DNA of 63,624 nucleotides, counting the filler, from Folioceros fuciformis (lineage: Eukaryota), in assembly GCA_049999805.1 (NCBI GenBank). It is 7 parts of 7 records of this genome, joined end to end, with 100 filler letters (N's around TTAATTAATTAA, not from the genome) between each part and the next. Parts side by side here need not be neighbours in the genome. Positions count along the whole stretch, not along the records: positions 48,194 to 54,054 come from JBNGIO010006241.1; 6 more parts are not named here. One strand, given 5' to 3'. The notes below the pieces were generated by a model. It searched no databases, was not told the origin of the DNA, and saw only the letters and a list, made by a program, of their open reading frames with translations. Positions 16,525 through 63,470 of this stretch are shown here, piece after piece (the first letter of the stretch is position 1; the number at the start of each line of letters is the position of its first letter). Both the position numbers and the translations under genes were made by a program.

Positions 16525-18932
16525 TCAATTTGGAGAAAATGGTGGTCTTGCGTCCACATGAACGTGTCTTCCATACAACCACTGACCTAAAACGCTAGCA
16601 AAGAAGGCACCACTTAAACCTGCATCAGTAGTTAATCCGAACAGGATGACACCTTCGGATGCAATGACCGATGATGGGGCGTCTCCTGCCGTCAACTGCC
16701 AATCCGAGGCTGTTGAGAGGTTGGCTCCTGCTGCACTCACTTCGTAAAGGGACGTCTTCGGGAAACTAGATGCAAGCTGTAGCAATCACGACAGATGCAT
16801 CAAAGTCAGCCAAGGAGCGGCCTCTACGTTCAAACTAATACGCCGAAAGTTGCACTGCTCACCTCATCCAGTGCGGCCTTTCCGTTGATCCCCGAGACAT
16901 TGGCAACCACTGCTTTCAGTTTTGCACTGCCAACAAGCTGACAGAGACGGAGAGACATTCGTAGAGACACGGCAGTCATTAACCAGAATGCAATCTCAAT
17001 AAAATATACTAAGCAGTGCAGAAAGAAAACTCAATCTGCATGGCTTACTTTACGCTTTAGCCCTTCAGCAGCAGTTTGGACAGCCTGCTGGAGGCCTACG
17101 ACTTGCGCAGCCCAGCCCACCTTGATGGAGTTCTCGGGGGCGGCGAATAGTAGCACAGCAGCCCACTCCCCAAGCGATCCCTCCTTGCTCTCCAAGTTGG
17201 CCAGGCTGAGAAACCCGCCACCACCCAAGGTCATGACTCCCGAGAACGAAGGCAGCTCTTCCGGTAAGAGCTTGGTCAGCAAGGCTGCAGCATCTGCTGC
17301 TTTCACACCTGCATTCAAACGGAGACAGCTTTGCTTAGCTTCAAATGCACGAGGAACGTTGCCTCAGGAAGACGAAATGCCACATCCACTCATTTCAGTT
17401 GAAGCACTATTACCAGCTGGGATACGGCTCTGAGGAGGCCTGCTCAGGGAAAAGACAGACACGATTGCCAAAGGTCGTTTCAACGAGCTCAACGCTGCAC
17501 GGAAAGCAGCTTCGACGGCCTCCTGCTGAGACTTCCCAGTGGCAAACCCATGCCCAACCATAGTCCCATCTGTACCCTGGATGGCAGACTGGATAGTAGA
17601 TGCAACCGACTGGGCAGCACCTTCTAGCTGCTGCAGATACCTGCTCCTGCCAAACCAAAACCCCCGACCCGATCTCCCCGAGAGTTCAGGTTCCACGACC
17701 CGCACCTTCCTCCCTCCCTCCTGCACCGGCTGCTGCCTCCCCTTTGCAACCACCATCCCACATGCAACAACAATGCCGGACAGCAGAGCTGCAGCCTGGA
17801 AGATGGGATCATTTGGAAGCCCTCTCGCAACCCTCCACACGGACGACACCTGCGACGTTTTCTGGATCTCAAACTGAAGACAAAACACCACCAGCACAAA
17901 ATAACATCAGCCAGGCTACCCCTCTGTTCACTGCAACAGAACGGATCTGTGCTATCAAGCAAGACTGGGGGCTGTTTTCTACCTTGAAATGAACAACGAC
18001 TGGCAAGAAAGAGGCCTGAGCAAACGGTCAGAGCAAAGACAGGATCCTTCATTCTGTAGAACCACGGGACGGGACAATTCAGCTACTATGGCCTCAACTT
18101 CACATCATGGTGAGCAAAAGTGGCGACAGGGGCATCAGGCAAGTACATGTGATGGCTCATCTGGAGGCAGCAAAAGAATCTGGCCGACTCGAATCCGGTC
18201 CTCGTAATTCAGCTTGTTCACGGAAATCAACGCCTTGAGCTTCACTCCGTGCCTCGCAGCTATATCCGCAAGATAATCCCCAGGCTGGACCATATACTCC
18301 ACCTTAGCCTCCTCCAAGGGTTCCGAGCCTCGCGATTCGCCAGCCCCTACTCCCCTGCCGTTGATGCTCCCATCCTGGCCTTTTCCCGACGACTCAGCCG
18401 CAAGAAATGCGGCCCCGTCGTCCTGTCCCCGCTTGGCCACATCCAGCTCCGCCTCCGCTTGGGGCTCCGATTCCGCTTCCAGAGACTCCACAATCTCCAC
18501 AGAATGCCGGAGAGGGAGAGCTTCCCGGGGGTCTTCCACAAAGCCTGCTTTCGGCTTGGGTATGAGGATCACCTGCCGGGGAAACACCCGGTCCAGGTTC
18601 ACGCTCGGGTTGAGCGCCTGCAGATCCTGCACACGGACTCCAAGCCTTTCCGCCAGCTCCGACACCCACTCGCCTTCTTTCAGCCGATACTGCTGCGCCT
18701 CCTTCTCAGGCGCCGCCTTTGCCCGTTCCTTCTCCGACGCCCCCTTTCCCTGATCCTTTTCGTTTTGCCATTTCTTGATCCTTCTGACCACCAGCATAGC
18801 CCCCTCGCCTCCTGGCGCGGCTGAGACGCGTCTGGCAGCCACCACCTTGACGAGCGAAGAGGACTGTCCGTTCCGGATGGCTTTCATGCAGCTCGCGCCG
18901 GGGGCTTGCCAGGCCAGCACTGTGGCTTCCAT
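16525..18932 (-). CDS. ~621-aa protein: putative transit peptide, two LysM domains, a hydrophobic segment and a FIST-N-like C-terminal domain
   Basis: Six phase-compatible GT-AG exons: 18932-18147, 18015-17983, 17873-17414, 17308-17049, 16937-16863, 16776-16525. LysM motifs YRLKEGEWVSELAERLGV...LNP...QVILIP and YMVQPGDYLADIAARHGV...VN...GQILLLP. The FIST-like call is by eye. Confidence 0.75.
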
Positions 18933-19396
18933 GGCCGACAGGCTTGCTCGGCGGAAGCCAGCTCGAATAGCGAGCCGTCGGCTACCTTTGAAAGCGGATG
19001 ACACAAGACGACGCGCCAAACGTGGATTTCAAACCGGCCGCACCCTAAACTGTTAACGATGAAGCATGTAAATGACTCAAGGTGTTACCTTCCAAGGCCA
19101 TGAAGTGTTAACTTCCATCCACAGGAGAGGACAGCGAAGGATAATATTAACAATCACCATATGTCAGACATCCAGCTCTAGTGGGCTCTGAATTGGGAAC
19201 AGGAAGATTAAGCGACCTGAGAGCCTCCTTGTCTGAATGGCAAAATCTAAGTTCTAGGAAGATCTAGGGGCTACAGGATCCCGGACGGATGAGGATGGCC
19301 GCGGCATGGGAAGAATTTTGCAGACAAATTGAGTCCAACAGAGCAATCTTCAACAAGACGGTTTTTTGATACATGTTTTACAATACAATCCCCACA

Positions 19397-38900: not shown

Positions 38901-38981
38901 GTGCAGAGCGAATTTGCCGGAAGAGTGTTTTCTGGCAGATCTGCCAAAGAGAATTAGGTGGTGGTCGATGTTGTTTGGCTT

Positions 38982-40931
38982 ATGCGTTGGTCAATGAGCA
39001 GAACTGGGCAGGGGTTGGCGGGACATTTGCACATTCCATCGTCGCAAAGGAGGCAAAGCTTTTCGGACTGGGTACACAGCACGACAAGAGCAGTTAGGTT
39101 TGAAGGGGCTGTGAAGGTTGGACCAGGTAGCAAACCAGTTGAGGAGGTTCAGACCAGTGAGAGTGTGGAAACATTAGACCTTCTGGTTCAGCAAGGCTCT
39201 TATGTTCCTGCCTCTCTCTTTTACTACATCCTGAGGAGATGCACTGCACAGAAAGATCTTACTGGTGGAAGGCGCGTTGATGGCGTTACTGTGAAATGCG
39301 GGTATGAGTCGAACCCATACTTGGCCAACCATATCATGCGCATGTATGCTTCTCATGGAAGGTTGCAGGAAGCAACTCAGGTGTTTATGAGGCTGAGTGC
39401 ACCAAGCACTCACATGTGGTTTTCTATTATTTTAGCTCACTCTGAACATAACCAGCCTGTGACAGCCATTGAGCTGTATAGACAGATGCTCGGGTCGACT
39501 GTGAAGCCCAACAACTACGTCTACGTGGCAGTTCTTAAGGCGTGTGCCAATGCACCGGATCTAGCCTCAGGGAAAGAGGTGCACGCTGATATCTTGGGTA
39601 ATGCAGTTAAGCCTGATATATTTGTAAGCAATTGCTTGGTGGACATGTATGCTACTTGTGGGAGCCTAGACGATGCACGGAGGGTGTTTGACAGCCTGCC
39701 GATGAAGGATGTGGTAACATGGAACGCATTGATTTCTGGTTATGCTCAGCATGGACTTGGTCAAGAAGCACTTGCTCTGTACGCAAGTATGCAGCAAGAG
39801 GGCGTCAACCATGCAAATCGTGTCACATTTGTATCCCTTCTGAAAGCATGTAGCAGTGTTGGAGCCTTAGACCAGGGGAGACAGCTTCACTCCCACATTC
39901 AGCAACTAGGGTTGGAAGCTGATGTGGTGGTTGGCAGCAGCCTTGTGGACATGTACTCCAAATGTGGCAGCTTGGAGGATGCTTGGAAGGTCTTTGACAG
40001 GTTGCCTAAAAGGAATGTCGTGACATGGAATGCGCTGCTAAATGGCTGCTGTCACCATAATGACGGGGAAATGGCAATTCAATTTTTTGAGCAGATGCAG
40101 GAGAATGGAGTAGAGCCCAATGAAGCTACCTTTGTTTGTCTCCTCATGGCATGCAGTCATGAGGGCCTGGTAGATGAGGGCCAAGGCTACTTCAAGATGA
40201 TGGTGGAAGAGTACAACATTGTGCCTACTGGACATCACTATGCCTGCATGGTTGATCTTCTAGGACGATCAGGCCACCTCCGTGAGGCAGAAACAATGTT
40301 ACAGAGGCTGCCATCTGAAAACGAGGTCGTAGGTTGGACATCTTTGCTGAATGCCTGCAAGAGCTTCAGCGATGTGGAGCGTGCAAGGCGATGTTTTGAC
40401 CGTCTTACTCAACTAGAACCTCAGTACTCAGCCGCGTATGTGCTCTTGGCAAGTATGTATGCCAGTGCCAATATGTGGCAGGATGTAGACAGGATAGAGA
40501 GGCTAAGAAAGGTTGCAGGTGCCTCCAAGAAGCCGGCTAGGGCGTGGATTGAGGTCAACAGCAGGGTTCATGCATTCGTGGTGGGGGAGGAAAGGGATGA
40601 TACTTCTTCCAAGCTAAGGAGCATGAATCTGTGCTTGGAGGTAAACGGCCGAATCCTTGACTCCTCCTCGGAACCGAAGGAGGCTTCTGTCAGAGACAAG
40701 AACGATGCCCTATGTGGACATGCTGAGAAGCTAGCCCTGGCGTACGGTCTGCTGAACACCAAGGACGGCACAACTTTGATAGTCACCAAAAATCTTCGCA
40801 TGTGCAATGACTGTCATAACGGCACAAAGAGCATGTCAAGGATCGAACAGCGACAGATCATAGTTAGAGACGCACACCGTGTTCACCATTTTGTGAACGG
40901 CTGTTGTTCCTGTGGGGATCGGCATTATTGA
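38982..40931 (+). CDS. PLS-class PPR-E-DYW protein, DYW:KP 'DRH' variant (candidate U-to-C RNA editing factor)
   Basis: Intronless ORF with about 11 PLS motifs and E1/E2. KKPARAWIEV replaces the PG box, followed by HAEKLALAYG, CNDCH and C-terminus CSCGDRHY. First in-frame ATG is at 38982; the true start is uncertain. Confidence 0.92.
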   Translation: MRWSMSRTGQGLAGHLHIPSSQRRQSFSDWVHSTTRAVRFEGAVKVGPGSKPVEEVQTSESVETLDLLVQQGSYVPASLFYYILRRCTAQKDLTGGRRVDGVTVKCGYESNPYLANHIMRMYASHGRLQEATQVFMRLSAPSTHMWFSIILAHSEHNQPVTAIELYRQMLGSTVKPNNYVYVAVLKACANAPDLASGKEVHADILGNAVKPDIFVSNCLVDMYATCGSLDDARRVFDSLPMKDVVTWNALISGYAQHGLGQEALALYASMQQEGVNHANRVTFVSLLKACSSVGALDQGRQLHSHIQQLGLEADVVVGSSLVDMYSKCGSLEDAWKVFDRLPKRNVVTWNALLNGCCHHNDGEMAIQFFEQMQENGVEPNEATFVCLLMACSHEGLVDEGQGYFKMMVEEYNIVPTGHHYACMVDLLGRSGHLREAETMLQRLPSENEVVGWTSLLNACKSFSDVERARRCFDRLTQLEPQYSAAYVLLASMYASANMWQDVDRIERLRKVAGASKKPARAWIEVNSRVHAFVVGEERDDTSSKLRSMNLCLEVNGRILDSSSEPKEASVRDKNDALCGHAEKLALAYGLLNTKDGTTLIVTKNLRMCNDCHNGTKSMSRIEQRQIIVRDAHRVHHFVNGCCSCGDRHY

Positions 40932-45687: not shown

Positions 45688-47693
45688 TTAAACTAAGATA
45701 CTGTTTGTATCTATCGCACAATTACTAAAAGCTGTAGAAGGTTCTATAAAGGTTCCTTGAAGAAAATCTCTAGCCGCAGAACGAAACATATCAACTGTCA
45801 TCATTGGAACATGATTGTAACATCCTGCTAAGTTGTCCACGCAACCTTGTACTCCTGTTACACATTAAAGATGAAAGTTAATTTTTTTGTTGGACTGCAA
45901 ATCAAATAAATCCACTCAATATGCTTTTGAATGTATGTTACATGTCAAAAACAAATTCATGATTTTTTATAGAGTATGTAAAATAAATAAATAAATAATC
46001 TACAACAATATATGTACCATTGCTTGCGGAGCCGAACATTGCAATCTGCACAAACATACTATAATCGGCATATATGAAGCTCATGTTGGCATTTGAAGCT
46101 CGAAAGTTATTTACTAGTATTCTTAGTTGGTGATTATGAGCATCCACTATTGTATTTAGTGGTTGGATGCAATTATCCGAATAAGGGTGAAATGGAATGG
46201 TGTTTTGTGAAGAGCCTTCGGCTTCATTTGAAACATTTCTTGAAGTTCTTTTTGCTAATTCAGAACATCCAAGTGGTGGAATATTGATGAACATGAAGTT
46301 TGTCACATTGCCAGATCGAATAAGTGTCTGCACATAGCCACGTAAAAAACAAAATTAAAAAAAAGATTTAATATGCGGTAAGAACTTAAATAATTATGAA
46401 TATATTATACCATAAACCCTAAAATATAGAAATTTAAGTACCTCCACACCAAGTTGAATTCTACTAATGACTTCATCCACCAATGTTGTTCCTATGTGTA
46501 ATTGAGACGTGTTGGAATAAAAATATGCTCTAATATAATCATTTGCTCCAATACCAAAAATATACAATCCATTTGTCATGTCTTCATTGCTTGGTAAGAT
46601 TGGGTTGCTACAAATCTCTACAATACATAAAAAATTGAGAATGAAGAGAAATAACATATAAATATGCACAAACAAACAAATATGATTTTTCTATACATTA
46701 CCTTGAGAAGCAAGAACATTTTGTCTAAATTCGGACCACCAATACATTTCGGTACCAAGGGAGTAAAGAGACCCATTCACAATGGCTGTGGCTCCGGAAA
46801 ATGCAAAATTTGCTCCACTTTTAAAATTTGGTCGAGACACATTCGTAAATGGATGAGGAGGCAAAAGACCAAAACCTTGTGCTGAACCCACAATAATCAA
46901 AACATTAATATGTGTCTCATCCACTTTAATGATTATATTACCGAAAGAAATTAAAAAAAATGAACAATAATTCTTTCCTAAGAAGTCAATGATACGACGT
47001 TGATCATGTGTTGCTTGCACATTTGTTTCGTACGCCTCATTGAATCCATTAGAATAAGAGGCGTCTAAAGCTAATTTATTGCCACTATCCAATAGNNNNN
47101 NNNNNNNNNNNNNNNNNNNNNNNNNNNNNNNNNNNNNNNNNNNNNNNNNNNNNNNNNNNNNNNNNNNNNNNNNNNNNNNNNNNNNNNNNNNNNNNATCAA
47201 AACATTAATATGTGTCTCATTCACTTTAATGATTATATTACCAAAAGATTTTTTTTTTTAAAGAACAATAATTCTTACCTAAGAAGTCGATGATACGACG
47301 TTGATCGTGTGTTGCTTGCACATTCGTTTCGAACGCCTCATTGAATCCAGTAGAATAAGAGGCATCTAGAGCTAATTTATTGCCACTATCCACTAGTGAA
47401 TCTCCGAATCCAAATAATGCAGGGTAACATAACTTTGTTCCCATGGTTGTAGTTTTTTTGAAACTTCTAACATTTTGATCAAATGCTTGATTAGGGAAAC
47501 CAAAGAAACGTATAATCTTGACATTTCCTTCGTAAGAAGAGTTATAGTTTTCATTACTTTTAACTCCCTTACTATTCCCTTTGTGGGAGGAATTATAACT
47601 GGAGTAATTTTGAGTCAAACATATCAATATTGATATAACAAAAGCTAAAATAAATAGATTTCGTAACATCTTTCCACGAATTGTTATTGTCAT
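45688..47693 (-). CDS. GDSL esterase/lipase-like protein with a divergent block V; the model may span two tandem paralogs across a gap
   Basis: Signal/anchor peptide, CYPALFGFGDSLVDSGN, GANFAFSGAT, LYIFGIGANDY, NIPPLGC, and last exon ...FLQGTFIEP. AT-rich; N gap at 47096-47195 is flanked by diverged duplicate sequence. Confidence 0.8.
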
Positions 47694-48193: not shown

Positions 48194-50785
48194 GGCTCCA
48201 GGAGGAGCAGTGTAAGGAGCCCAGCTCTTCCTCTTCCGCGAAAATGTACCGGCGTCAATGTGTTGTCCAATGATGGTCGTCGCCAGGAGCAGGAGCAGGA
48301 GCAGGAGCGCTTGTGGCAACAATTCTTTCTGGAGCCTACCATGTGGTGGGACAACAGACGAGATAAGAAGAGCTCCCGTTCGCCTGACTTCCGGCGGAAG
48401 GGGTCCGGTGAGGTGCTGTGGTTAAACAGCATGTTTAAGCCAGCTTGGGTTGATGATCAGCTCGTTTCCTTGGATATGCAGATGAGTCATGGTGTCTCAC
48501 CTTCCGCGTCCTGCTCTCCGGATAGGCCTGAAACTGGGACGCGTGCAGGACCGGAAATGGGCATCGTTACGGCTGTAAGCGTGAGCACGTTATGCCAGCA
48601 TGGGAAGCATTTGGAGGCCGTTGGAGCCCTGGAATGTCTGGCGCAGACAGATTCTGGTATTCCTCAGTCTCTGCTTTACACTGTGCTGAAACTGTGTACA
48701 GCTAAGAAGGATATGGCTGTGGGGCGACGAGTTCATGAGCTCGCAGTCAAACTCGGGCACGAGTCGGATGCTTTCTTGGGAAACCATATCTTGCGCATGT
48801 ATGCAAGTGGAGGTAGTCTGCAGGAGGCCATGGATGTGTTCACCAGGGTGGGCAACCCAGATGCCTTCATGTGGTTTTCCATTATATCTGGTTATGCGAA
48901 GCACGGGAAACCTAAGGAAGCCATACACCTGTACCATGAGATGCGTAGGTCAGGAGTGGAGGTGACTGGTCGCGTCTTTGTAGCTGCCCTTCAAGCATGC
49001 ACATTTGCTGCCGACTTGGAATCTGGCAGAAAAGTGCACGGTGATGTGTTGCACAGTGGCATTCCCATTAATTTGTTTGTTGGGAATTGCCTGGTCGGCA
49101 TGTATGCGAAATGTGGTGAACTGAAAGATGCACGCCAGGTTTTTGATAGCATGCCCACAAGGGATGTGGTGACATGGACGGCGATGATTGCGGGGTATAC
49201 CGAGCAAGGGCTCGGACATGAGGCGCTTGTTCTCTATGGACAAATGGAGCAGGAGGGGCTGATTTTGGCTAACCATATTACCTTTGCCTGCCTTCTGAAG
49301 GCCTGTGCAAGCACTGGTGCCTTACAGGTTGGCAGGCAGCTGCACTCACACATTGTGGAAAGCGGAGTGCTGGACGACGTTGTGTTGGGTACCTGCCTGG
49401 TGGACATGTATGCCAAGTGTGGTGAACTGGAAGATGCACGCCAGGTGTTTAACAGCATGGCCACAAAGGATGTGGTGACATGGAATGCCCTGATATCTGG
49501 GTATGCTAAATGTGGGGAACTGAAAGACGCACGTCAAGTTTTTGAGAGCATGAGTACGAAGAATGTGGTGACATGGAATGCCCTGATAGCTGGGTATGCA
49601 GAGCAAGAGCTTGGACATGAGGCACTTCTTCTGCATGGACAAATGGAGGAGGAGGGTCTGATTCTAGCTAACCATGTGACTTTTGCCTGCCTTCTGAAGG
49701 CCTGTGGAAGCACTGGTGCCTTACACAAGGGGAGGCAGCTGCACTTACAGATCGTGGAAAGGGGACTGCTGGATAGCGTAGTGTTGGGCAACTGCCTGGT
49801 GGACATGTATGCAAAATGTGGTGGTCTGGAAGATGCACGCCAGGTTTTTGACAGTATGAACTCAAAGGATGTGGTGACATGGACCTCCCTGATATCTGGC
49901 TATGGCACTTGTGATGATGGTCACAAGGCACTAGCTTGTTTTGAGGAGATGTTAGTTGCTGGTATTCAGCCTAATGATACAACTTTTACTTGCCTTTTGG
50001 TAGCATGCAGTCATGAGGGACTGGTTGACGAGGGTCGCAGCTACTTCTATTCCATGGCTGAACTGCATGGCATCAAGCCTACTATGGAGCATTACACATG
50101 CATGATTGATCTGCTTGGTCGTGCAGGCCATTTGCATGAGGCTGAGGACATGTTATTGTCATGTCAGGGCCAAAACGATATCGTGGGGTTGATGTGTTTG
50201 CTGAATGCGTGCAAAATTCATGGGGACATACAGAGGGCGATATGGTGCTTTGAAAGCATTGTTAGGCTGGACCCCCAGCAGGCGCCCGCATATGTGCTTA
50301 TGGCCAATACGTTCGCAGATGCAGGCAGGTGGACCGACGTAGACAGGATTGAAACACAGAGAAGGTTAGCAGGAGCCAACAAGAAACCTGCAGTGGCAAC
50401 AATTGAGGTGAAAAAGGAGGTACACAGATTCGTGGTGGGAGAAACGGGAGAGGATATTGCGCTCAAGGTAGAGAGCACAAATGCACGTTTGAAGCAGGAG
50501 GGAGGCCACGTGCCTCACACAAAGTTGGTGTTGAAGCCAATTTCTGAGAAGGACAAGGAAGACATGCTTTGTGGGCATGCCGAGAAGCTGGCTCTGGCGT
50601 TTGGTCTCTTGAACACTCCGAGTGGAATACCTCTGGTGGTAACGAAGAATCTGCGCATGTGCAGCGACTGCCACAGTTCCACGGAGATCATGTCAAGGCT
50701 TGAACATAGAGACATTGTTGTGAGGGATGGGTTCCGTGTCCATCGTTTCGCCGATGGTTGTTGCAGTTGTAAGGGTCGACCGTGA
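48194..50785 (+). CDS. PLS-class PPR-E-DYW protein, DYW:KP 'GRP' variant, with an N-terminal OSB-type PDF motif; open at the contig start
   Basis: PDF motif LWQQFFLEPTMWWDNRRDKKSSRSPDFRRKGSGEVLWL, about 15 PLS/SS motifs, KKPAVATIEV, HAEKLALAFG, CSDCH and C-terminus CSCKGRP. Confidence 0.93.
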   Translation, partial: GSRRSSVRSPALPLPRKCTGVNVLSNDGRRQEQEQEQERLWQQFFLEPTMWWDNRRDKKSSRSPDFRRKGSGEVLWLNSMFKPAWVDDQLVSLDMQMSHGVSPSASCSPDRPETGTRAGPEMGIVTAVSVSTLCQHGKHLEAVGALECLAQTDSGIPQSLLYTVLKLCTAKKDMAVGRRVHELAVKLGHESDAFLGNHILRMYASGGSLQEAMDVFTRVGNPDAFMWFSIISGYAKHGKPKEAIHLYHEMRRSGVEVTGRVFVAALQACTFAADLESGRKVHGDVLHSGIPINLFVGNCLVGMYAKCGELKDARQVFDSMPTRDVVTWTAMIAGYTEQGLGHEALVLYGQMEQEGLILANHITFACLLKACASTGALQVGRQLHSHIVESGVLDDVVLGTCLVDMYAKCGELEDARQVFNSMATKDVVTWNALISGYAKCGELKDARQVFESMSTKNVVTWNALIAGYAEQELGHEALLLHGQMEEEGLILANHVTFACLLKACGSTGALHKGRQLHLQIVERGLLDSVVLGNCLVDMYAKCGGLEDARQVFDSMNSKDVVTWTSLISGYGTCDDGHKALACFEEMLVAGIQPNDTTFTCLLVACSHEGLVDEGRSYFYSMAELHGIKPTMEHYTCMIDLLGRAGHLHEAEDMLLSCQGQNDIVGLMCLLNACKIHGDIQRAIWCFESIVRLDPQQAPAYVLMANTFADAGRWTDVDRIETQRRLAGANKKPAVATIEVKKEVHRFVVGETGEDIALKVESTNARLKQEGGHVPHTKLVLKPISEKDKEDMLCGHAEKLALAFGLLNTPSGIPLVVTKNLRMCSDCHSSTEIMSRLEHRDIVVRDGFRVHRFADGCCSCKGRP

Positions 50786-52149
50786 GACTAATGGAAGATT
50801 ACCCTGTGGTCAACTGTACACCTAGGGGAGGGTATGTTGCCTTTTGTTTTGGGTGTAAATGTGCTCGTGTAGAAGACAACCGTTTGGCTTTTTCCTCTAC
50901 TTGGACCGATAATGATGTGCTGCGCAGACGCTTTGGAATTCCACAACGCGATAAGCTGGCCATGTCATCAACAGGTTCTCCTTGTTATCCACGGATCTCG
51001 ACCCCTGATGGACATAACATTACCAGGGGGTCAAAAGAGGAATACATGCTTCTGGAATTCGCAATCCAAAGCCTATCACACACGCACGCCACTTCGATGG
51101 CGTTGTCTCCATGTCCTGTACCCATTACCAAGTACAATATTGCTTCTTTTTCTCAGAAGAGCATCTCTGACGAGAGAGAGAAGAGCATCAAGATGTGGGC
51201 ACGAACTCAATATATGCAAAATCCCCCCCCCCATGGCTACAAGCGTCTGCAAAAGCAACTCCGGGCATGGATACGAAAGTCCTCGCAACGTGGGTGCGAG
51301 CGTAACCTCCCAGCTGAAAGTCCTCCACAAAGTGGGTGCGAGCGACTGCATAAGCAACCTCCCAGAATTGCCTGTTTCACACAAGCAACAGAAGTTCAAT
51401 TTGAATCAAACTATCAAAGAGCTTATAATATGGTTTTATACAAGCTATATAAATTGAATTTGTTGAGTATATTTTGCAAGTTGTTAACACACTGAATCTA
51501 ACGCAAGAAGACTTCAAGATAGATACAAATGTTAGCAACTTAGCTTGACACATTTCATTAACTACTAGAAGGTTGACAAGAGTAGTAGTATTTGCATCCA
51601 AGGAGTTAGTTCTAAACTTTTTCGATAAGACCTTCAATGAACTTTTGACTAACTGTATGCACTTATTTGCATCGCTAGGATAAAATTTAGTACTAAATAG
51701 ACAGTAAGCATACAACATACAAAGATCAAGAAACTTATTATTCTTACATCAACAATAACCAAAGAATATTTGTTAGCATTAGCAATGCAAGAACTTAGTT
51801 CGCTTACAAACAAAGTAATCATATATTATAAAATCCTGCAGCCAAGGACCATATGCCGTTCCTTGGGCTACGCCTTGCTAATCTAAATCACATCACACGT
51901 CTTGCTTGCACATATTCACAACATTGGTATTTGCAATGAGTATGATAGCAATAACTAGTATCCAAGTTGGAGCCACCATCAATCACACCATGGGTCACTT
52001 TGTATCTCTTGAATGTAACTTACCATCTTTGGAGTGTATAAAAGCAACATTAGACAAAAGTAAGATAACCATAATTAAAGACCCACCGATTGTTGGACCC
52101 ATAGCGATGTTAAATGAAAGAAGGAACTTTCGTGACTTGAGTTGTTAAT

Positions 52150-52800
52150 ACTTGGCATACATAAATCGGCCCATCAAGGGGCACCTCGTTGTCACCCATG
52201 ATGCATCTAGGGTGTCATATTCTCAATGGGCTAGGGAATGTAGGTTTCTTCAATACAAGGTTTATCCATATACTTCGTAGACGCATACCTTTTTTTCACT
52301 AGCCTAAAGAGGGAAATTGGCTTGAATCACTCATGATTTCACTTAGAGTTGACCTTTTTCTCACAAGGGAAAACAAGTTTGTGTTGTTGATACGGTTATC
52401 ACAAAATCCATTACGCATTCGATTTACAAGCGTATCATCATTAACTCCTTGGATGGATGGTGGTGAAGGGTTGTGCAAATGCTAAAGTCTATAAATATTT
52501 TTCCTATAGGTTAGGCATGTTTTCATTCCTTTGCTCTAAAGACCCATGGGCCATCAGCAAAGACTTTAGGTTAGGCATGTTTTCATCCCCTTGCTCTAAA
52601 GACTCGTGGGCCATCAACAAAGACTTTTCAAGGTTCATTAATGAGTGCGCAAAGGTGTATCATAGTCATAGGATTGGAGTTCTTCCTCTTTCTTCAATCG
52701 TGGCCTTCTTTTGATAGTGCATATCCATTGCTTTGCGAAGAGTATTAGCCATTGCGGCCTCTAGAACAACAACACACTGCAGATCAAGCAGCTCAAGCAA
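52150..52800 (+). mobile_element. Degenerate 3' remnant of an RLE-type (CRE-like) non-LTR retrotransposon
   Basis: Frameshifted motifs THD, LRVDL...VVDTVIT (PD-D/ExK-like), AKVYKY and ...ISIALRRVLA. Includes a ~60-bp tandem duplication at 52508-52627. Recognised by eye. Confidence 0.45.
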
Positions 52801-53265
52801 CTTGGTTGGCACGGGTGGTAGGGTGGTAGGGCAAGCCTTGTGTTATTTCGACATTTCTTGGGCACCAATGATAGATAGGCCTTGTGGTATTTTCACATTT
52901 CTTGGCATCGGTGGTAGGTGGGCCTTGTGTTATTTCATATCTCAACATTTTAGGAGAATAGATGATTTTGAGATGATATTCCTAACGGGCTCCTACCGTT
53001 GCAGCCTTTGGCCTTGTCCGGTTTCTCCTTCCCAGAGTTCGAGTAGACCGGATTTTACATCTTGTTTTCAATAATAAAAAATAATCCCTTTCTCTCCACT
53101 GGTGTTAATGGTCCAAATCGTCGGACCCCAAAAGTTGGTCTTCTCTCCCGAGGTGCCCAAGTGGCTGCCGTGTGCACCGCCTCGGGAGAGTGGTGTGGTC
53201 ACAGTCAGTCCGTCGGTCTGCACGCCGTGGTTCGTCGGTACGCTAGCATTTTCCCCCAGTGAACG

Positions 53266-54054
53266 ATGGCCGCAACAGATTCTCTGTGTACAGGGATTCT
53301 ACGAGGAGCCCCCGCTCACCTAATCACAGGGAGTCAAGCCCCAGCAAACCACCAAGCCTTCAGATGCTGCAGTGTAAGGAGCCCAGTTAATCCACCTCCG
53401 AGAAAATGTTGGGATGGGGACGACCTCTTCGGGGATGGTCGTCGCCAGAAGCAGGAGCAAGAGCACTTGTGGCAACAATTTTTTCTGGACCCAACCATGT
53501 GGTGGGACAACAGACGAGATAAGAAGAGCTCCCGTTTGCCTGACTTCCGTCGTAAGGGGTCCGGTGAGGAGCTGTGGCTAGACAGCATGTCCAAGCCAGC
53601 TTGGGTTGATGAGCAGCTCTTGTCTTTGGATATGCAGATGGGTCACGGTTACTCTCCTTCCAAGTCCAGCTCTCCGGAGAATCCTGAACCTGGGAGCCGT
53701 GTAGCAAGGGAAATGGGCTCCAGGAGGAGCAGTGTAAGGAGCCCAGCTCTTCCTCTTCCGCGAAAATGTACCGGCGTCAATGTGTTGTCCAATGATGGTC
53801 GTCGCCAGGAGCAGGAGCAGGAGCAGGAGCGCTTGTGGCAACAATTCTTTCTGGAGCCTACCATGTGGTGGGACAACAGACGAGATAAGAAGAGCTCCCG
53901 TTCGCCTGACTTCCGGCGGAAGGGGTCCGGTGAGGTGCTGTGGTTAAACAGCATGTTTAAGCCAGCTTGGGTTGATGATCAGCTCGTTTCCTTGGATATG
54001 CAGATGAGTCATGGTGTCTCACCTTCCGCGTCCTGCTCTCCGGATAGGCCTGAA
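53266..54054 (+). CDS. 5' part of the PDF-PPR-GRP gene (or next tandem copy): targeting-peptide-like leader plus two PDF motifs; truncated by the contig end
   Basis: ATG at 53266; two 120-aa repeats each with WWDNR...PDFRRK...LWL...PAWV. 53716-54054 is identical to 48194-48532. Confidence 0.88.
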
Positions 54055-54715: not shown

Positions 54716-55730
54716 AGCCTGCAAGGGATGAGGCCTATGTTGCACCCCTTCCAGAATTTATATTTTTCATGTTGTTGCAGGGGGTGAGGCATATGCCTTG
54801 TCCCCTCCAGAGTTCATATTTTTCATGTTGTTGTAGGGGGTGAATCATATGCCTTGCCCCCTCCAGATTCTTTATTCCCCATGTTGTTGTAGGGGATGAT
54901 CCGATGAGGCATACGTCCCACCTCCAATTTAGTATTTATATTTTGAATGTTCAATACCATAAGTAGTGATGCGGTTTAGCTCTATTGATGCTTTACTCGG
55001 TTTTGGCATGTGACAGCTTCTTTTTTGTTGATTTTGTTTGAGCCCAGTTTATACTGTATATGCATTAGGAATACATTTTCAAAATAAACTCGAGGTGATT
55101 GGATCAACTTTGTTTTTTTAATGTAATACTAACTGGGAAAACAGGTTTTTTATGGAATTATTTCTAATCATTGATTCATTATCTTTTACAACACATAAAT
55201 TGATTGTTCATCTTCTGTGCACTATTATGTGCATGAAACAACAAATGAGAATTAGTTCATTGAGCTAGTATTATATTAATCTAAATTTTAATCATAAAAT
55301 TGGAAGCTTTAATCTTTTTTTAAAAGTAAACCACATATGTAACACACCCTTCAAATTAAATATTATATTTTATACCATCTTTGGAATGATTTGGGGATTG
55401 ATTTTACAAAAATGGTATGCCAACTATGTCTGTGACAACCTAGAAAAATACCTTTAGGATTTAGAGGTATTTGTTAACTTTGCATGCAGTTCGTATTCAG
55501 AGAAAAAATTATATATGTCACAGAACGGATGCTATTGAAGACGATATTCAGAAGTTGATCCGAACACCTCAACATGAGGTTTACCATATGCCTTTTACCT
55601 TGCATCAACATTCAAAGTATATACTTTAGAGTTTAAAATTGAGGTGGTGCGTTCGCCTCATTCATACAACAATAATCAGAATATGAACAGTGCTTGAGGT
55701 GGAGCATATGCCTCACCCTTTCAACTACAT
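54716..55730. repeat. AT-rich element with inverted arrays of ~56-bp subterminal-type repeats (non-autonomous DNA transposon-like)
   Basis: About 4 forward units (GGGTGAGGCATATGCC...CCTCCA) at 54716-54925 and about 3 reverse-complement units at 55575-55725. Confidence 0.55.
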
Positions 55731-56765: not shown

Positions 56766-58346
56766 CTAAGCACCAACATGTGGCCGAAGACTCTTATGTG
56801 GCAACGGCCAATTCAATGGCGAATGCATCAATCGGTTTGTGATTTTTGCAAGTGTTCGCCGAGCTGAAACGTCCTCGTCACACAATTGCTCCAAGCTCAA
56901 GTGAAAGAACATGTTCATTTGATCGTAGCTGTATGATCGCTCATGGTCCTCCTCCTTAAATTGCATGTCGAAGTACTCTTGACTAAGGTCCCTCCCGGCA
57001 ATGCGCAAGGCTAGCTTCCCAATTGCATATGTCTCGCTTTGAAAATTGTGACGAGGCTTGCTCTCGAACTGCACATCTCGAACACTCCCTGGTGGTGGAG
57101 GGAAGTAATACAACTCTGGAGCCACCCACCAACGACCGTTGAGGGGGGATCTCTCCACATCTCGAGCCGCCACGGTGGACGCCCAATATGGACTTTCCCT
57201 TGGGAATGCCGAATTCGACGACAAAGCCCAATCGCAAACTCCAATGTATACATGCTCGGGTTGAAACTCGGGTTCGAAATGCAGCAAAATGTTGTCTGGT
57301 GAGAGATCGTTGTGCAAGACGTGGCTTTGATGGATGTTGTTCATGATATTCAACAACGTCCATGCTAACTGTGTCCGCTGCTTGCGAAACAACGCCACTT
57401 GCCGCGCTCGGTCGTATGAATTTGGCTTGAACTTTGGATCGTTGCGGAGCTCCCAAGTAAAGGCGGATTCCAATGGATCTTCTCCATACTTGTTGTCATC
57501 TTGTAGAATGCTTCGAATGGTCCCACCGTTCCACCAAAGGGTGAATCCCTCTTCTTTGTTGTGATGCACAGCAATCCACTTGATGCAACCACGATGGGGA
57601 GATCGAACAGCCAATGCCTCCGCATTAAATAGGGCGGTCTTCTCAGCGGCGGGCATATTCCGTGCCACCTTGCTAGCCAACATCATGAATCGCGGGAAGT
57701 TGGGATCATTCTGGATGTGACACTTTTGTACGACCCCAAAGCCCCCTGTATACGATTCGTCCAAGTATTGCACAACTGCAGTGTCTGCCAAATATATGAG
57801 TTGATCCCCTCGAAACTTCAATTGTGTTTCAGAGAGATGTTGGCCTCCCCGCGACTTCCAACGACGAGTGTCCTCATGCCACTGCTTCAGTTTTGCCTTG
57901 GTCTCCTCGTACTCAGCGGAGTTTTTTATTGCCTCCTCTCGAGCAAATCGCTCCACAAGTTGGTCCGCATTCCACATAGCATCGTTGATGCGGTCCTCCT
58001 CCCACCTCGTATATCCACTCTTCATCATTTGGTCGCGCCATTTGTCGGTGTCAACAACCTTGTTGATTAACTCCTTCATATCCCTTGCAAAGGCAGCCTT
58101 GCCAACCTCAACTGTGTGTTGGAGATATGCAAGGGAAAAAAATGACATTGGATGCTCCATGAAAAATTTGTAAATTTCACGAAGCACCTCGTCACGGCAT
58201 TCCCTGTCTGGCTTGCCTTCCTCGTTTGTGTGGGCTTGGGATCCTCCATATCGAGGTCCTTCCAATTTTTTCTTCAACCCACGGTTCCGTTTCCCTGCAC
58301 GCTTCCTTTTCCCTGCCTCAGCAGCTCCTGAGGGTCCACCTTCCAT
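56766..58346 (-). CDS. Intronless atypical non-RD protein kinase (~526 aa) with a basic NLS-like N-terminus
   Basis: G-loop YTGGFGVV, subdomain II Lys in LASKV, catalytic loop HNDLSPDNILL, DWA in place of DFG, and WWVAPEL. ATG at 58346. Confidence 0.8.
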   Translation of the reverse strand: MEGGPSGAAEAGKRKRAGKRNRGLKKKLEGPRYGGSQAHTNEEGKPDRECRDEVLREIYKFFMEHPMSFFSLAYLQHTVEVGKAAFARDMKELINKVVDTDKWRDQMMKSGYTRWEEDRINDAMWNADQLVERFAREEAIKNSAEYEETKAKLKQWHEDTRRWKSRGGQHLSETQLKFRGDQLIYLADTAVVQYLDESYTGGFGVVQKCHIQNDPNFPRFMMLASKVARNMPAAEKTALFNAEALAVRSPHRGCIKWIAVHHNKEEGFTLWWNGGTIRSILQDDNKYGEDPLESAFTWELRNDPKFKPNSYDRARQVALFRKQRTQLAWTLLNIMNNIHQSHVLHNDLSPDNILLHFEPEFQPEHVYIGVCDWALSSNSAFPRESPYWASTVAARDVERSPLNGRWWVAPELYYFPPPPGSVRDVQFESKPRHNFQSETYAIGKLALRIAGRDLSQEYFDMQFKEEDHERSYSYDQMNMFFHLSLEQLCDEDVSARRTLAKITNRLMHSPLNWPLPHKSLRPHVGA

Positions 58347-58608
58347 TTTTAAAAGAACTTCAACTTTTTGCAAAAAATTGCAAGAAATCACCCCCTGCAA
58401 ATAATAGTGGACCCCCACCCTCAACCTCGGGATTCAGTCCACCACTTAAACCGTGAAGTCTAAGTTCTCTGGTGAACCACTCAACCAAGGGAAGGTGGAG
58501 GTAAGGAANNNNNNNNNNNNNNNNNNNNNNNNNNNNNNNNNNNNNNNNNNNNTTAATTAATTAANNNNNNNNNNNNNNNNNNNNNNNNNNNNNNNNNNNN
58601 NNNNNNNN

Positions 58609-61600
58609 TGACTATAGCCTTTAGCAACTAACCTGGCCTTATAACGTCCAACACTACCATCGGTGTTCAACTTCTTCTTGAAAACCCATTTGCAAGCAAC
58701 AGGCTTGCGGCCCTTGGGTAAATCAACTAATTTCCAGGTTTTGTTGGCTATAAGGGAATCATACTCAGACTTGATAGCCTTTTGCCAGTGTTCAGCTTCA
58801 GGACCACAAATGGCTTCCTTATAAGTGGCTGGTTCAAAAGTATCAAAGGTCTTATCTAAAACTAAACCAGCTACAAAAGGTGGCTCAGACCATTCACTAC
58901 GAGGTGGTCTATAGCGTGTAGATCTACGCAAAACTGGCTCAGGTGTAGGCTCAACTGGATCAGGTGTGGGCTTAGGATCAGACGAAGGGGGGTCAGAATC
59001 AAAAGTAACAACAACATTATCAACTTCCAAGGGTTCAACAAAGGAGGGAACTGCAGAAGACTCATCTGGTGGAGAAGATTCAGGTGCTGGAGAAGCACTA
59101 GGAAGAGGAGCTTGTGCATGTGAACCGGATGTTGTAGCCCCTCCTGGAGCCGAGGAAGGTGAACTGGAAACATCATCAGTATAAAAAATAGAGACATCAG
59201 CATCAGCATCAGCATCAGCATCAGTGTTGTAATCAGCCAAGTCATCCACTCCATGAATAGAAACAGTAGAATCAAAAGAAGTAGGATCCAAAGCAGCTTC
59301 ATGACGTCGGAGAAGAGCATTCTCATGAAAAACAACACTCCAAGAAATGAAAACTTGCCGAGTACTTGGATCAAAAAGCTTATATCCCTTTACCTCGTCC
59401 GAATAACCAATGAAAATGCGGCGAACAGCTTTAGGATCAAGCTTACTTCGAAGTGCAGAAGGGATTAAGGCATATGCTGGTGCTCCAAAAATACGTAGAT
59501 GAGTGATTCGTGGCTTCTTCCCAGTCCAGCGCTCATAAGGGGTAACCAAGCCAAGCTCCTTCGTAGGCAACCTGTTCTGCACATAATTAGCTGCCATAAG
59601 GGCTTCAGCCCAATATCCCCTAATGAGGCCTGCAAATGCCAAGCTGGACAGTGTAGCCTCTTGAAGGGTCCTATTCTTGCGTTCAGCGAAAGCATTCTGA
59701 GCTGGAGTATAAGGAACTGTAAATTGATGAAGAACTCCCTCTCCTAGAACCCTAAACCCTAAACCCTAAAATTATGTGAAGGCATTACTTATATACTCAC
59801 CTCCATTATCAGTCCTGAGAATTTTCAGCTGATGACCTGTCTGACGCTGAGCAGAAGCTAAATACGTCTGAAAACATGACAAGGCTTCGCTCTTATGTGC
59901 AAGAACAAAAACTGTGCAATAGCGGCTCCATTCATCAATAAAAGTGATGAAATATGATGCTCCACCAAAAGACATGGTGGACATGGGGCCACATATGTCA
60001 CTATGAACAATGTGAAGGAGACTGATAGCTCTTGATAAGTTTTGGTCTCTAAAAGGTTGTGAAATTGCCTTGCTCAATTGATAAGAATCACAAAAGGCTC
60101 TATTATCAAAAGAGAAAGACAAAGGATCTCTAAAAACTGAGTTATTGACCAAAGTGGAAAGCCTATTAAAATTCATATGCCCTAATCGGCAATGCCAAAG
60201 CTGAGTGGGGGAGAGACCAGAAGCTTGGGTAACATTAGCAGTTGCAAGTGAACTATTCAAAGTTCTAACATTGAGAAGGTACAAATCATGAAAAGGTGTC
60301 CCTATAAATAGGTTAGATCCAATACTATTGCTAATGATAGAACAACCTGTATTGTCAAAGCAAACTCTACAAGAGTGCTCCTCTGTGAGCTTCATAACTG
60401 ACATGAGAGTCTTTGTCATGGATGGGACAAACAACACACCTAAGATGGTGAGGGATGAATTGTCAGGGAGCTGTATCTTGACTAATCTTGTACCCTTAAT
60501 GGATAAACCACTGTCATCACCCAAAAGAACAAATTGGTGATGATCTGGAGTAGAGTAAAAAACAGTGAAAGCATTCCTATCAAAACAGATGTGGCTGGTT
60601 GCCCCCGAGTTGAGGAACCACATGTCATTTTGGATCTGGACAGAAGATAAGCAAACTGCTAAGATGGAGGGTGGCTTGGGCATACCTTTAGATGTGGCTA
60701 CATTGGATGCTGGAATGGAACTTGCACTTTCCTTCCTGGGCTCACCAGGCCTTTTCTTCCTACAATCCTTCTCAAAATGACCAGGAATCTTGCACCAGTT
60801 GCACGTGAAAGTATGTCTTTGAAGGTTGGGCTGCCGAGAGGTTGAAGATCCTCCTCGTGTTGAGCCCCCACGTCCTCTGCCACGATTGCCTCCACGTCCT
60901 CTTGAAGCAAACAAAACTCTGCTGCCTTGCTGCATAGTAGGCTTTGACTTGTGAAGGCTCCTTCGGCGTTCTTCAGCAATCAAAGCTCCAAATACCTGCT
61001 CCAATGTTACATTGGCACCAGGTCCAATTGCTTGAAGAGTAGCATTCTAAGAACTGATAAACTGAGAATAACTATCAGGCAGAGATGCTAAAAAGGAAAC
61101 AGCTGCTTGAAACTCAGTGAAAGTTGTCCCACAATATGCAAGGGTCGCACGAGCTGTGCGAAACTTATTGATATAAGACTCAACAGTCTCATTATCCGTC
61201 ATACGAATATTGAAAAAATTCCAATGCGCCAAAACAAGGGAAACAGAACTCTTATCTCTATAGATGAGTTGGAAGTTGTTCCAAACTGCAGCTGAGGTAT
61301 CAGCGTCCATGGTATGCGGCATCATGTTCCTGTCAAGGGATGCCAAAAGGATTGACCGGGCTCTCATGTCCTTCCTTTGCCATGCAAGAATATCAGCAGC
61401 ATTTGCATTGTTGGGCTGTGCCACTGGTTTTGGTTCTGTCTTGTCCACGACGGACATGAGCTCATGCTCCTCCAAAATCTGGGTCAGCCTCATGGCCCAA
61501 ATGTGGTTATCATTACCATTGAAGCGATCCTTGTCCTTGAACTCAATCTTCAAGGAACCTGGGGTGATCGCCATAGCTTGCGCAAGGTGTTGACAGGAGG

Positions 61601-61757
61601 CACTAGTTGTTGAAATGTGCTGGCTCCTAAATGTGCAGCTTGTGCAGTGGAAATTCCAACTCCACCAGCAGGATAGCCTGCCGCGCTTGCAAGGGTGCTT
61701 GCAAAACCAGCAGGGTTGCCTCCTGCAGGAGAGGGAACACCAGATGGGTTGCCCCAA
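58609..61757 (-). mobile_element. Ty1/copia LTR-retrotransposon gag-pol, inactivated; RT truncated by the contig end
   Basis: Gag FNGNDNHIWAMR, knuckle CNWCKIPGHFEKDC, protease WFLNSGAT (D to N), LWHCRLGH, integrase HSDICGP/RTDNGGEY/AERKNRTL, and RT start CKWVFKKK...YKARLVAKGYS. One frame with stops at ~61047, ~59772 and ~59766. Confidence 0.95.
59748..59770. repeat. Interstitial plant telomere repeats (CCCTAAA)3 inside the copia integrase
   Basis: AACCCTAAACCCTAAACCCTAAA lies between GGEYISNAFT and GEGVLHQFTVPYTP. Confidence 0.85.
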
Positions 61758-62193
61758 AACCTTCTCAAAAGCTCAAAAGGAGACGCTGCTTGCTACTCAT
61801 CGATGCAAGTTGTGGAATCGACAACAGGGGAAGCGGGTTCCTCCTGCAAATCCAATCTGCCAAGGTCCACATCTTCGCCTTCATTAAATTCGCCAGACGC
61901 TGATGATGGCGAACCTGACTGCATGTCCAATTTTCAAACATTAAGAACGGGGCACGCGTGGGCGTCCCGGTGAGAAAAGCCTAGCCAAATGCACACGCTT
62001 CTCCTCTTCAGTTGGAGTAGACAGAAAAAATAATTGTTGAATTCCAGTTAGAAGAATAGAGAGAAAATCTTGTAAATCATGGATCTGGTGAGANNNNNNN
62101 NNNNNNNNNNNNNNNNNNNNNNNNNNNNNNNNNNNNNTTAATTAATTAANNNNNNNNNNNNNNNNNNNNNNNNNNNNNNNNNNNNNNNNNNNN

Positions 62194-63470
62194 TTTTCTT
62201 CATGCTAGGTACATGTAAAACACCCAGCAATGTGATGTGTGCCCCACCTTTCATAGGGAATGAGACATCACCATATCCAGCAATTGCGAGTCCGCTGTCG
62301 TCTCCAAGTAGCACAAACTGACTAGTTGGTGCTGGCTTGTAACTGATAAATCTGTCTTGAGAGATACAGATATGGTGTGTGGCACCGGAGTCCAAAAACC
62401 ACATACTTGTATCAGCTTGTGTAAGAGATAAACATACAGCAAGGATGGTTGGTGGCTTGGAGGCAGTCTGTGAAGAGCTGCTCTGCCCATGAGTCACCAT
62501 ATTCGTCTCGGCACCAGGTATTGCTTCACGGCGAGGCTCTCCAGCTCGCTTCTTTCTAGATTCACTTTCGAAATGACCTGGAATTCTGCACCAGTGATAG
62601 GTGCCCCTCTTTTTATGTCCAGGTGTATAAGAGATTGGTGCAGGATAGGGTCTTCCCCTTCCTCGACCACGTCCTCTCCCCACGTCCACGCTGGGTGTAG
62701 AGGATATGTGAACTATGTTGCTGCTGACCTCGTCCATTAGCAACCCTGCTGGATTCCTCCTCCAGCAGTGCACCGACCACTTGTGCAAAAGTGATGTTAG
62801 CACCTGCCTAGTTAACAAAATTGGTTTGTGTAGTAACAAAAGCTCTGTAGCTGTGTGGCAGGGATGTGAGAAGGACTGTTATAGCCTTCGTTTCGGTCAA
62901 TACATCACCGCCGGAAGCAAGCTTAGCACGTAAGCTGCGAAATCTATGTAAGTGGTGCTCCACACTATCACTTTCCTTCATCCGTAGGCCATAGAATTGT
63001 CTGGTTGCGTTTATAAGTGTAGCCCCGTCCTTTGCGGCAAACATGTCTTTAAATAAACTCCGGACTGCTGCAGACGTCGTCTGCCCTTGAGTATGTTGTA
63101 TCATGTTCCTATCAAGAGCTGATAGGATTATACTCCATGCTCTTTTATCCTGCTTTTCCCAAGCCTTTATTTTTGCATCTATGCCTTTAGGATTTGCTAA
63201 TGCTGGATTTGTACTCTTTCCAGTGACAACATCCATGAGGTCGTGCTCTTCAAAGATTGCTTTCATTCGAAGCTCCCAGATTGGGTAATCTGAGCCATTA
63301 AACCGGTCCTTATCTTTCATATCCAGCCTGAAAGTGGTGTTGTTAATGGTTGTGTTGGTACCCATGATTGGAGGTTGAGGTGGAGGAGGTGTTAATGTAA
63401 AACGAGGTGCTTTTGGCCTAGGATACCTATGTGGTGGTGACCACATGCAGCTACGGTACTGACACTTCAT
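62194..63470 (-). mobile_element. Second Ty1/copia element (gag-protease part), frameshifted, related to the first
   Basis: KDKDRFNGSDYPIWELRM, LLTSLPHSY, frameshift near 62810, degenerate knuckle YHWCRIPGHFESES and WFLDSGATHHIC. Confidence 0.92.

Follow-up and report, generated by a model that had tools for sequence, protein, structure and literature searches.

PDF motifs of the OSB kind ahead of a predicted PPR-DYW:KP editing factor of the GRP subgroup in Folioceros fuciformis

The PDF motif is known as the ssDNA-binding part of OSB1, and the PDF of AtOSB1 is reported to be sufficient for ssDNA binding (PMC6963530, PMC4166229). AtOSB1 and AtOSB2 favour ssDNA over dsDNA or RNA (reviewed in PMC4166229), and AtOSB2 has been reported to be tetrameric (PMC6963530). 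In PPR editing factors, according to the available text of PMC10482289, the last PPR falls at −4 relative to the edited base, and heterologous editing assays routinely delete N-termini and still obtain functional proteins. For the DYW:KP type, the available text of PMC9478123 places the DRH and GRP subgroups in hornworts and describes GRP consensus-designed proteins reaching about 22–26% U-to-C editing in E. coli. In PMC11845758, Lys88 is reported as the catalytic lysine for U-to-C activity. Knowledge of natural U-to-C editing factors is still limited, and designer editors consist of the PPR array and DYW domain alone. Here, we describe a gene in a 63,624-nt stretch of Folioceros fuciformis DNA (hereafter the window, filler between its seven parts included) in which the PDF motif and the DYW:KP type meet in one predicted protein.

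Gene structure and the overlapping scaffold ends

The gene occupies one of several small scaffolds in the window (48194–54054, 5861 bp, plus strand, with N44-TTAATTAATTAA-N44 linkers on both sides), exactly the stretch singled out by the first-pass annotation; all coding features lie on the plus strand. Within this scaffold the gene is circularly permuted with a 5522-bp period, such that its 3′ part comes before its 5′ part. A 339-bp terminal overlap that encodes the inter-PDF linker and PDF2 is present at the scaffold start (48194–48532, open from the scaffold edge) and again at the scaffold end (53716–54054), with 100% identity and in the same frame. Joining 53266–54054 to 48533–50785 yields 3042 nt, an uninterrupted run of 1013 codons closed by a stop codon, and the join through an identical overlap that had been claimed for this scaffold is borne out at 339/339 nt and 1013 aa. 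From the end overlap we infer that the 5′ and 3′ parts belong together. On 48194–50785 alone, without any join, a single PDF motif precedes 16 PLS-type PPR motifs, which are followed by E1/E2 and a DYW domain; the fusion of one PDF to a PPR-DYW protein is thus present on contiguous DNA, independent of the join.

The second PDF does depend on the join, and the two-PDF form is unproven because none of the Logan contigs from four sequencing runs spans the 339-bp overlap, the edges of which are bridged singly (53590–53793; 48426–48651 or –48696). Most likely, the scaffold ends are identical because the gene is present in tandem or because an assembly cycle was left untrimmed, and under either the real gene would have two PDFs. 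We consider it rather unlikely that the join is artefactual, i.e., that leader-PDF1-PDF2 and PDF2-PPR-DYW derive from two paralogues or tandem copies sharing 339 identical bases, in which case the true editing factor may carry one PDF or another N-terminus. Such an origin would suit the position of the overlap precisely at the scaffold ends, its lack of a crossing contig, the plentiful PPR paralogues that fragment contigs (many joints and loose ends) and the single PDF of the nearest GRP relative (P0126), but it sits poorly with the complete identity, the maintained frame and the separate bridging of each overlap edge. Single gene models with two or three PDFs before the PPR array also exist among the relatives, which makes the two-PDF join plausible, and PDF2 is contiguous with PPR-DYW in either case.

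Taken through the join, the locus appears to be a nuclear gene, intact and free of introns, whose product would be a PLS-class PPR editing factor targeted to an organelle. An in-frame TGA (53260–53262) stands just 5′ of the ATG at 53266, which opens a leader of ~57 aa (53266–53436), a presumed organelle-targeting peptide as judged from its composition. PDF motif 1 (aa 59–124; 53440–53637) and PDF motif 2 (aa 180–246; 53803–54003) follow, the latter repeated at 48281–48481, where it is contiguous with the PPR array. The array (48575–50179) was delimited from Pfam PPR families, internal repeats and motif boundaries and comprises 16 PLS-type motifs, a count that, like the boundaries, is a segmentation by eye made without a PPR-specific tool. 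Motif lengths run 31-34-31-35-35-31-35-36-31-31-35-36-31-35-36-32, the tenth motif (49472–49564) being a 31-aa chimera with a P start and an S end; the array repeats internally at 306- and 93-nt spacing, and Pfam matches on 48194–50785 include PPR (2.1e-76) and PPR_2 (7e-75). The E1 and E2 motifs (50180–50386; PF20431 E_motif, 2.3e-12, with motif boundaries) and the DYW domain with the stop codon (50387–50785; PF14432, 4.6e-33) complete the coding region. A P/L/S array, E1/E2 and a DYW domain with HAE and CSDCH mark the product as a PLS-class PPR-DYW protein. The overall order, i.e., leader, PDF, a further PDF where the join holds, PPR array, E1, E2 and DYW:KP of the GRP subgroup, agrees with the first-pass annotation except that the PPR-like motifs number 16 and not about 15.

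Alignment of the DYW domain with eight PG-type domains, one DRH-type domain and one other GRP-type domain confirmed the proposed KP type and GRP ending. Specifically, the domain has a KKPA box (KP-type, not the PG box), HAE, CSDCH, LRMC (with Met), Glu at the position of the PG-type Lys and a terminal GRP, features as named in the available text of PMC9478123. A second KP gene in the window, of the DRH type (38958–40931), is without a PDF.

In the permuted scaffold, a non-coding spacer of ~2.5 kb (50786–53265), with only short ORFs and no recognised family, separates the stop codon from the start that follows. Sequencing run X3 leaves ~50957–53093 uncovered, a stretch with coverage in DNA runs X1 and X2; as X3 comes from a single study and its library type is guessed to be RNA, this gap is not taken as evidence of transcription, and among the listed sequencing runs none is recorded as RNA. 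Run X4 (organism B) contributed nothing beyond short paralogue-like pieces and numerous false joints.

PDF homology and PDF-PPR proteins in other plants

Both PDF motifs score far above chance on an OSB-only PDF HMM built from 180 PDF instances of 80 SSB-bearing proteins (78.6 bits for PDF1, positions 4–68 of 69; 81.6 bits for PDF2, or 79.1 bits within the 48194–50785 piece), and the proposal that they are PDF motifs of the OSB kind is upheld. A phmmer search that used the N-terminal 263 aa as query recovered 609 representatives (E ≤ 1e-3). An SSB-like domain is present in 80 of the 150 best PDF matches, and in 79 of these 80 it precedes the PDF; Pfam SSB was found in 7/10 sampled matches (E ≤ 0.01), and among the names that matches bear in their source records are OSB1, OSB2, OSB3 and “organellar single-stranded DNA binding protein 3.” Neither motif has lost any of the invariant PDF residues. 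Between the PDF1 and PDF2 cores dN/dS is ~0.28, a comparison that excludes the linker part, which a 2-aa indel puts out of register. AF2 predicts a confident small fold for the PDF (pLDDT >90 over motif 2), for which neither a sequence search of the PDB nor Foldseek against the PDB returned a relative and the ESM Atlas gave no usable match. Pfam found no domain in the N-terminal 263 aa. Word-index protein searches with the N-terminal piece (lengths 144–461 aa) and with residues 1–115 of the 863-aa piece gave no match; this is a limit of sensitivity and not an absence, because the exhaustive search finds PDF relatives. At the level of sequence, these modules are homologous to OSB PDFs. The gene itself is not an OSB, because it lacks an OB-fold/SSB-like domain: Pfam SSB is absent from the gene pieces at E ≤ 0.1, and a six-frame scan of the scaffold with an OSB-derived SSB profile gives no match at E ≤ 10.

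PDF-PPR proteins make up 11 of the 150 best PDF matches, and PPR domains occur in 21/22 profile-search matches. Their sources are lycophytes, ferns and mosses (Diphasiastrum, where they are common, Selaginella, Adiantum, Ceratopteris, Pteridium, Sphagnum and Ceratodon), with at least 19 such proteins listed for one lycophyte. These relatives carry one to three PDFs N-terminal of the PPR array, in the same domain order, and share 28–51% identity with the PPR-DYW part of the window gene. Nine of the listed fusions have a canonical DYW end (P0140 and eight from the profile search) and others stop at the E motif; besides the window gene, only P0126 among those listed has a GRP end, and its PDF is degenerate (48 bits, with the P-D-F triplet lost). 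A tree of 359 PDF instances (68 columns) did not resolve, and PPR-linked PDFs require nine changes on it. By sequence, the gene belongs to a widespread PDF-PPR class of non-seed land plants. With PDF-PPR proteins so widespread, nine of them canonical in their DYW ends, and with the DRH-type KP gene of the window PDF-free, the idea that the fusion is peculiar to a U-to-C factor is not sustained. It had also been thought uncharacterised: a literature search, made without Gerke et al. (2020), Gutmann et al. (2020) and Zaegel et al. (2006), found no description of PDF-PPR proteins, but the fusion itself is not unique, as many database proteins contain it.

A possible single-strand clamp beside the PPR array

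We hypothesize, with a probability of roughly 0.55, that the gene encodes an editing factor in which the PDFs act as a clamp on single-stranded nucleic acid 5′ of the PPR footprint. In this model, the PPR array would read ~16 nt upstream of the target uridine and the DYW:KP domain would convert that U to C. The PPR N-terminus would lie on the 5′ side of the footprint because the last PPR is at −4 from the edited base, and the N-terminal PDFs could there grip single-stranded nucleic acid independently of sequence, adding affinity or keeping the RNA unfolded. N-terminal modules are not generally needed for catalysis, since N-terminally truncated factors still edit in heterologous assays.

Alternatively, the PDFs may act as they do in OSBs, binding organellar ssDNA and anchoring the editing factor at nucleoids or at transcription bubbles, such that editing would be coupled to transcription or DNA metabolism. 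The reported sufficiency of the AtOSB1 PDF for ssDNA binding (PMC6963530, PMC4166229) favours this reading, as does the fact that the window PDFs score on the OSB-only profile as well as OSB PDFs; because AtOSB1 and AtOSB2 prefer ssDNA (PMC4166229), an RNA clamp fits less well on this point than a DNA tether. However, PPR editing factors work on RNA, the PDFs stand in line with an RNA-binding array, at its 5′ end, and the size of the PDF-PPR family in a single lycophyte better suits a per-target RNA role, and we regard tethering to DNA as possible but doubtful. It is quite improbable that PDFs in the PPR context have given up nucleic-acid binding to serve as a protein–protein or oligomerisation module, to cap the PPR solenoid or to persist as a decaying remnant. 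The reported AtOSB2 tetramer (PMC6963530) and the degenerate PDF of P0126 are consistent with such a role, but both window PDFs retain all invariant residues at ~80 bits under constrained evolution, and the module has been kept across mosses, lycophytes and ferns.

One might tentatively go further and see in PDF-PPR proteins an old, overlooked subclass of plant organelle RNA-editing factors with a built-in single-strand grip that either keeps RNA open on the 5′ side of the target or links editing to the nucleoid. If so, the PDF module may take over a task that in seed plants falls to separate helper proteins and, as a module shared with dinoflagellate poly-PDF proteins, would be a general single-strand binder beyond green plants. 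Dozens of editing-type PPR proteins carry this conserved, putatively nucleic-acid-binding module at the N-terminus, and variation in how efficiently they edit or how well they reach their targets could stem from it. The range of the PDF motif extends past OSB proteins, which is relevant to family surveys that call OSBs by PDF.

Comparison with OSB, DYW:KP and PDF-PPR proteins

Like the OSB family, the window gene has a PDF motif of ~50–65 aa in single or several copies and is probably organelle-targeted. Unlike OSBs, it is without an OB-fold/SSB-like domain, and its PDFs are N-terminal (C-terminal in OSBs) and joined to an RNA-binding array and a deaminase-like domain. With GRP-subgroup DYW:KP proteins, as described in the available text of PMC9478123, it shares the PLS array, E1/E2, KKPA, HAE, LRMC, Glu for Lys and the GRP end; in contrast to them it has one or two N-terminal PDFs, of which the available portions of the KP literature make no mention. 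In domain order (one to three PDFs, then a PLS PPR array) it resembles uncharacterised database proteins such as Selaginella XP_024517303 (P0128), Diphasiastrum KAJ7231026 (P0117), Adiantum KAI5076972 (P0081), Ceratopteris KAH7429238 (P0137), Sphagnum CAM6033764 (P0140) and a Ceratodon “DYW domain-containing protein” (P0215). Most database PDF-PPR proteins, however, end in a canonical DYW domain (PG type) or an E motif, whereas the DYW domain that closes the window gene is of the KP type, GRP subgroup.

Gene structure on a permuted scaffold

The window (1–63624) is made of at least seven scaffolds (21.7, 15.7, 10.5, 5.9, 4.4, 3.5 and 1.4 kb) with linkers of the form N44-TTAATTAATTAA-N44, and 100-N gaps also occur within scaffolds. 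Because the scaffolds are merely concatenated, genes that are adjacent in the window need not be genomic neighbours. The gene-bearing coordinates 48194–54054 are exactly one scaffold (5861 bp), whose bases 48194–48532 and 53716–54054 are identical over all 339 positions, so that the scaffold is a circularly permuted view of a 5522-bp unit. The 3′ two-thirds of the gene (48194–50785) are open at the scaffold edge, and its 5′ end (start codon ATG at 53266, with an in-frame TGA upstream) is open into the scaffold end, with a spacer of ~2.5 kb between the two parts.

The contiguous stretch 48194–50785 (863 codons) encodes the second of two PDF motifs, a PPR array, E1/E2 and a DYW domain with no join needed, so the PDF–PPR–DYW fusion reported by the first-pass annotation is confirmed independently of how the scaffold ends are joined. 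Its intronless ~1013-aa open reading frame is also arithmetically sound: the overlap contains no mismatch and keeps the frame, and joining through it yields 3042 nt, i.e., 1013 codons plus a stop with zero internal stops. The identical ends are most simply read as a tandem copy or as an assembly cycle left untrimmed. Among contigs of four sequencing runs, each overlap edge is bridged separately (53590–53793 on one side; 48426–48651 or 48426–48696 on the other) and no contig crosses the whole 339 bp, since contigs are interrupted by PPR paralogues and a CAGGAG repeat. That the joined gene is instead a chimera of two paralogues seems unlikely to us, as two or three PDFs before a PPR array are known in single gene models (database proteins P0006, P0056, P0194, P0195, P0197 and P0199).

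Several other features lie in the window. Copia-type LTR retrotransposon frames (gag, integrase and the start of RVT_2; 58557–61772 and 62138–62878, both minus strand) are split across scaffold joins. At 46896–47396, repeats 93–96% identical and 300–301 nt apart flank a 100-N gap (47096–47195) and look like a gap edge duplicated by the assembly. Short tandem repeats (54720–54887, 3 × 56 nt; 52504–52623, 2 × 60 nt) lie in AT-rich non-coding DNA, and minus-strand open frames at 18135–19028 and 56766–58433, with a LysM domain and weak protein-kinase matches, probably represent exons of ordinary plant genes.

PPR array and DYW domain

Sixteen PPR-like motifs (48575–50179; delimited by eye) follow a P-L-S rhythm. 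A chimeric 31-aa motif at 49472–49564 (plus strand), with a P-like start and an S-like end, is flanked by two near-identical PLS triplets (repeat spacings 306 and 93 nt) and fits the odd 93-nt spacing; it looks like a scar of unequal recombination within the array. E1, E2 and a DYW domain of ~132 aa follow. Aligned with eight canonical domains ending in DYW, this domain has KKPA for PG, HAE for HSE, LRMC for LRVC/LRIC, a shorter stretch after the box, Glu for Lys and a GRP terminus. These differences are those named for DYW:KP domains of the GRP subgroup—one of two hornwort subgroups, with DRH—in PMC9478123, which lists Met replacing Val, and Glu replacing K103 in GRP proteins. The C-terminus had thus been correctly read as DYW:KP ending in GRP. 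A second PPR-E-DYW gene on another scaffold (38958–40931, plus strand) is a KP type of the DRH kind (HAE, LRMC, ending in GDRHY) in which the PDF motif is absent. That both subgroups occur suggests that the DNA comes from a hornwort.

OSB-type PDF motifs at the N-terminus

For the N-terminal motif of the fusion gene, Pfam holds no model and a sequence search of the PDB gave no relative. When 1.84 billion representatives were searched exhaustively with phmmer, the N-terminal piece of 263 aa matched 609 proteins at E ≤ 1e-3 (163 at E ≤ 1e-10). Among the best 150 of these 609, an SSB-like domain, called with a profile made from four Pfam-confirmed examples, is present in 80 and lies N-terminal of the PDF motif in 79 of those; 11 are PPR proteins, and the 59 with neither are mostly short fragments or poly-motif proteins. 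Source names of matches include “protein OSB1, mitochondrial-like” and “protein OSB2, chloroplastic-like” (Populus), “Protein OSB3, chloroplastic/mitochondrial” (Anthurium) and “organellar single-stranded DNA binding protein 3” (Euphorbia). Against a profile made solely from the 180 motif instances found in the 80 SSB-bearing proteins, PDF1 (aa 59–124; 53440–53637) scores 78.6 bits and PDF2 (aa 180–246; 53803–54003) 81.6 bits, across positions 3/4–68 of 69; this test is not fully independent, as the OSB set was fetched with the gene's own sequence. Names and architecture nevertheless identify the profile proteins as OSBs. By sequence, this is the PDF motif that reviews describe for OSBs (PMC6963530, PMC4166229 and PMC6451138), and its first-pass identification was right. 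Neither Pfam nor a scan of every frame of scaffold 48194–54054 with the OSB-derived SSB profile detected an OB-fold/SSB-like domain, which rules out the gene as an OSB.

In an alignment of 44 sequences, six columns are invariant and thirteen nearly so; all of them hold aromatic, basic or proline residues and fall in the pattern W..FF..P..WWDNR..K..PDF.K....LW....P.W, which both copies keep. The PDF1 and PDF2 cores share 87.6% DNA and 82% protein identity, with dN/dS ~0.28, an estimate based on only 10.5 synonymous and 14.5 non-synonymous differences. With the same alignment, AlphaFold2 predicts a long helix, three short strands and a second helix (pLDDT > 90 for residues ~31–95 of a 113-aa piece), and Foldseek finds nothing like this predicted fold in the PDB.

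PDF motifs also occur in other contexts. Dinoflagellate proteins P0003 and P0005 (Effrenium voratum and Cladocopium) carry many in tandem (9 and 7 matched stretches); the motif is said to be restricted to green plants (review PMC4166229). Angiosperm gene models P0050, P0002, P0200 and P0196 comprise a Coptis kinesin, a 13-stretch Kingdonia protein, a Kingdonia PPR+SSB+PDF protein and a Cuscuta Ty3-capsid+SSB+PDF protein, some of which may be merged gene models.

The PDF–PPR class and its possible role

Of the best 150 of 609 matches, the 11 that are PPR proteins come from Selaginella, Diphasiastrum, Ceratopteris and Sphagnum (one each), Adiantum and Pteridium (two each) and unnamed sources (three). 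A second, profile search of proteins of 843–2405 aa, which scored the 8000 candidates sharing most words, gave 22 matches, 21 with PPR Pfam domains: 19 belong to Diphasiastrum complanatum, one to the moss Ceratodon and one to Kingdonia, the last also carrying an SSB domain and perhaps a merged gene model. These proteins bear 1–3 PDFs N-terminal of the PPR array; an additional PDF in P0198 (679–736) suggests two merged genes. All eight DYW-bearing proteins of this search end in canonical DYW, as does the Sphagnum fusion, and these nine listed fusions give no support to the special link to U-to-C editing that had been proposed. The sole listed relative with a GRP end, P0126 (753 aa; 50.6% identity over the PPR–DYW part), has a single, degenerate PDF. 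The fusion is therefore not rare: PDF–PPR proteins form a PLS PPR class present in bryophytes, lycophytes and ferns without a link to the KP type, and the window gene is a GRP-type example.

The first-pass view that this architecture was uncharacterised holds within our literature search, which gave no paper connecting the PDF motif with PPR proteins, although a passing mention may exist elsewhere. The main text of a 2026 survey of 182 OSB genes (PMC13393729) contains “PPR,” “pentatricopeptide” and “fusion” zero times, and public databases label PDF–PPR proteins “hypothetical” or generic PPR proteins. Heterologous editing assays usually remove the N-terminus (PMC10482289, methods), which may be why the modules went unnoticed, and which implies that catalysis itself does not require N-terminal modules.

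We propose that the protein would be imported into an organelle, where its 16 PPR motifs would recognise one or a few sites and its DYW domain would convert U to C at them; GRP-type DYW:KP consensus domains turn U into C, two such designer proteins reaching ~26 and 22% in E. coli (PMC9478123). As the C-terminal PPR motif sits at −4 of the edited base, the N-terminus lies on the 5′ side (PMC10482289), and the PDFs would additionally grip a single strand, regardless of its sequence, 5′ of the PPR footprint. We prefer RNA as the strand that would be gripped. The main rival is nucleoid DNA: in PMC6963530 and PMC4166229, the AtOSB1 PDF motif is reported sufficient for ssDNA binding and OSBs favour ssDNA over RNA.
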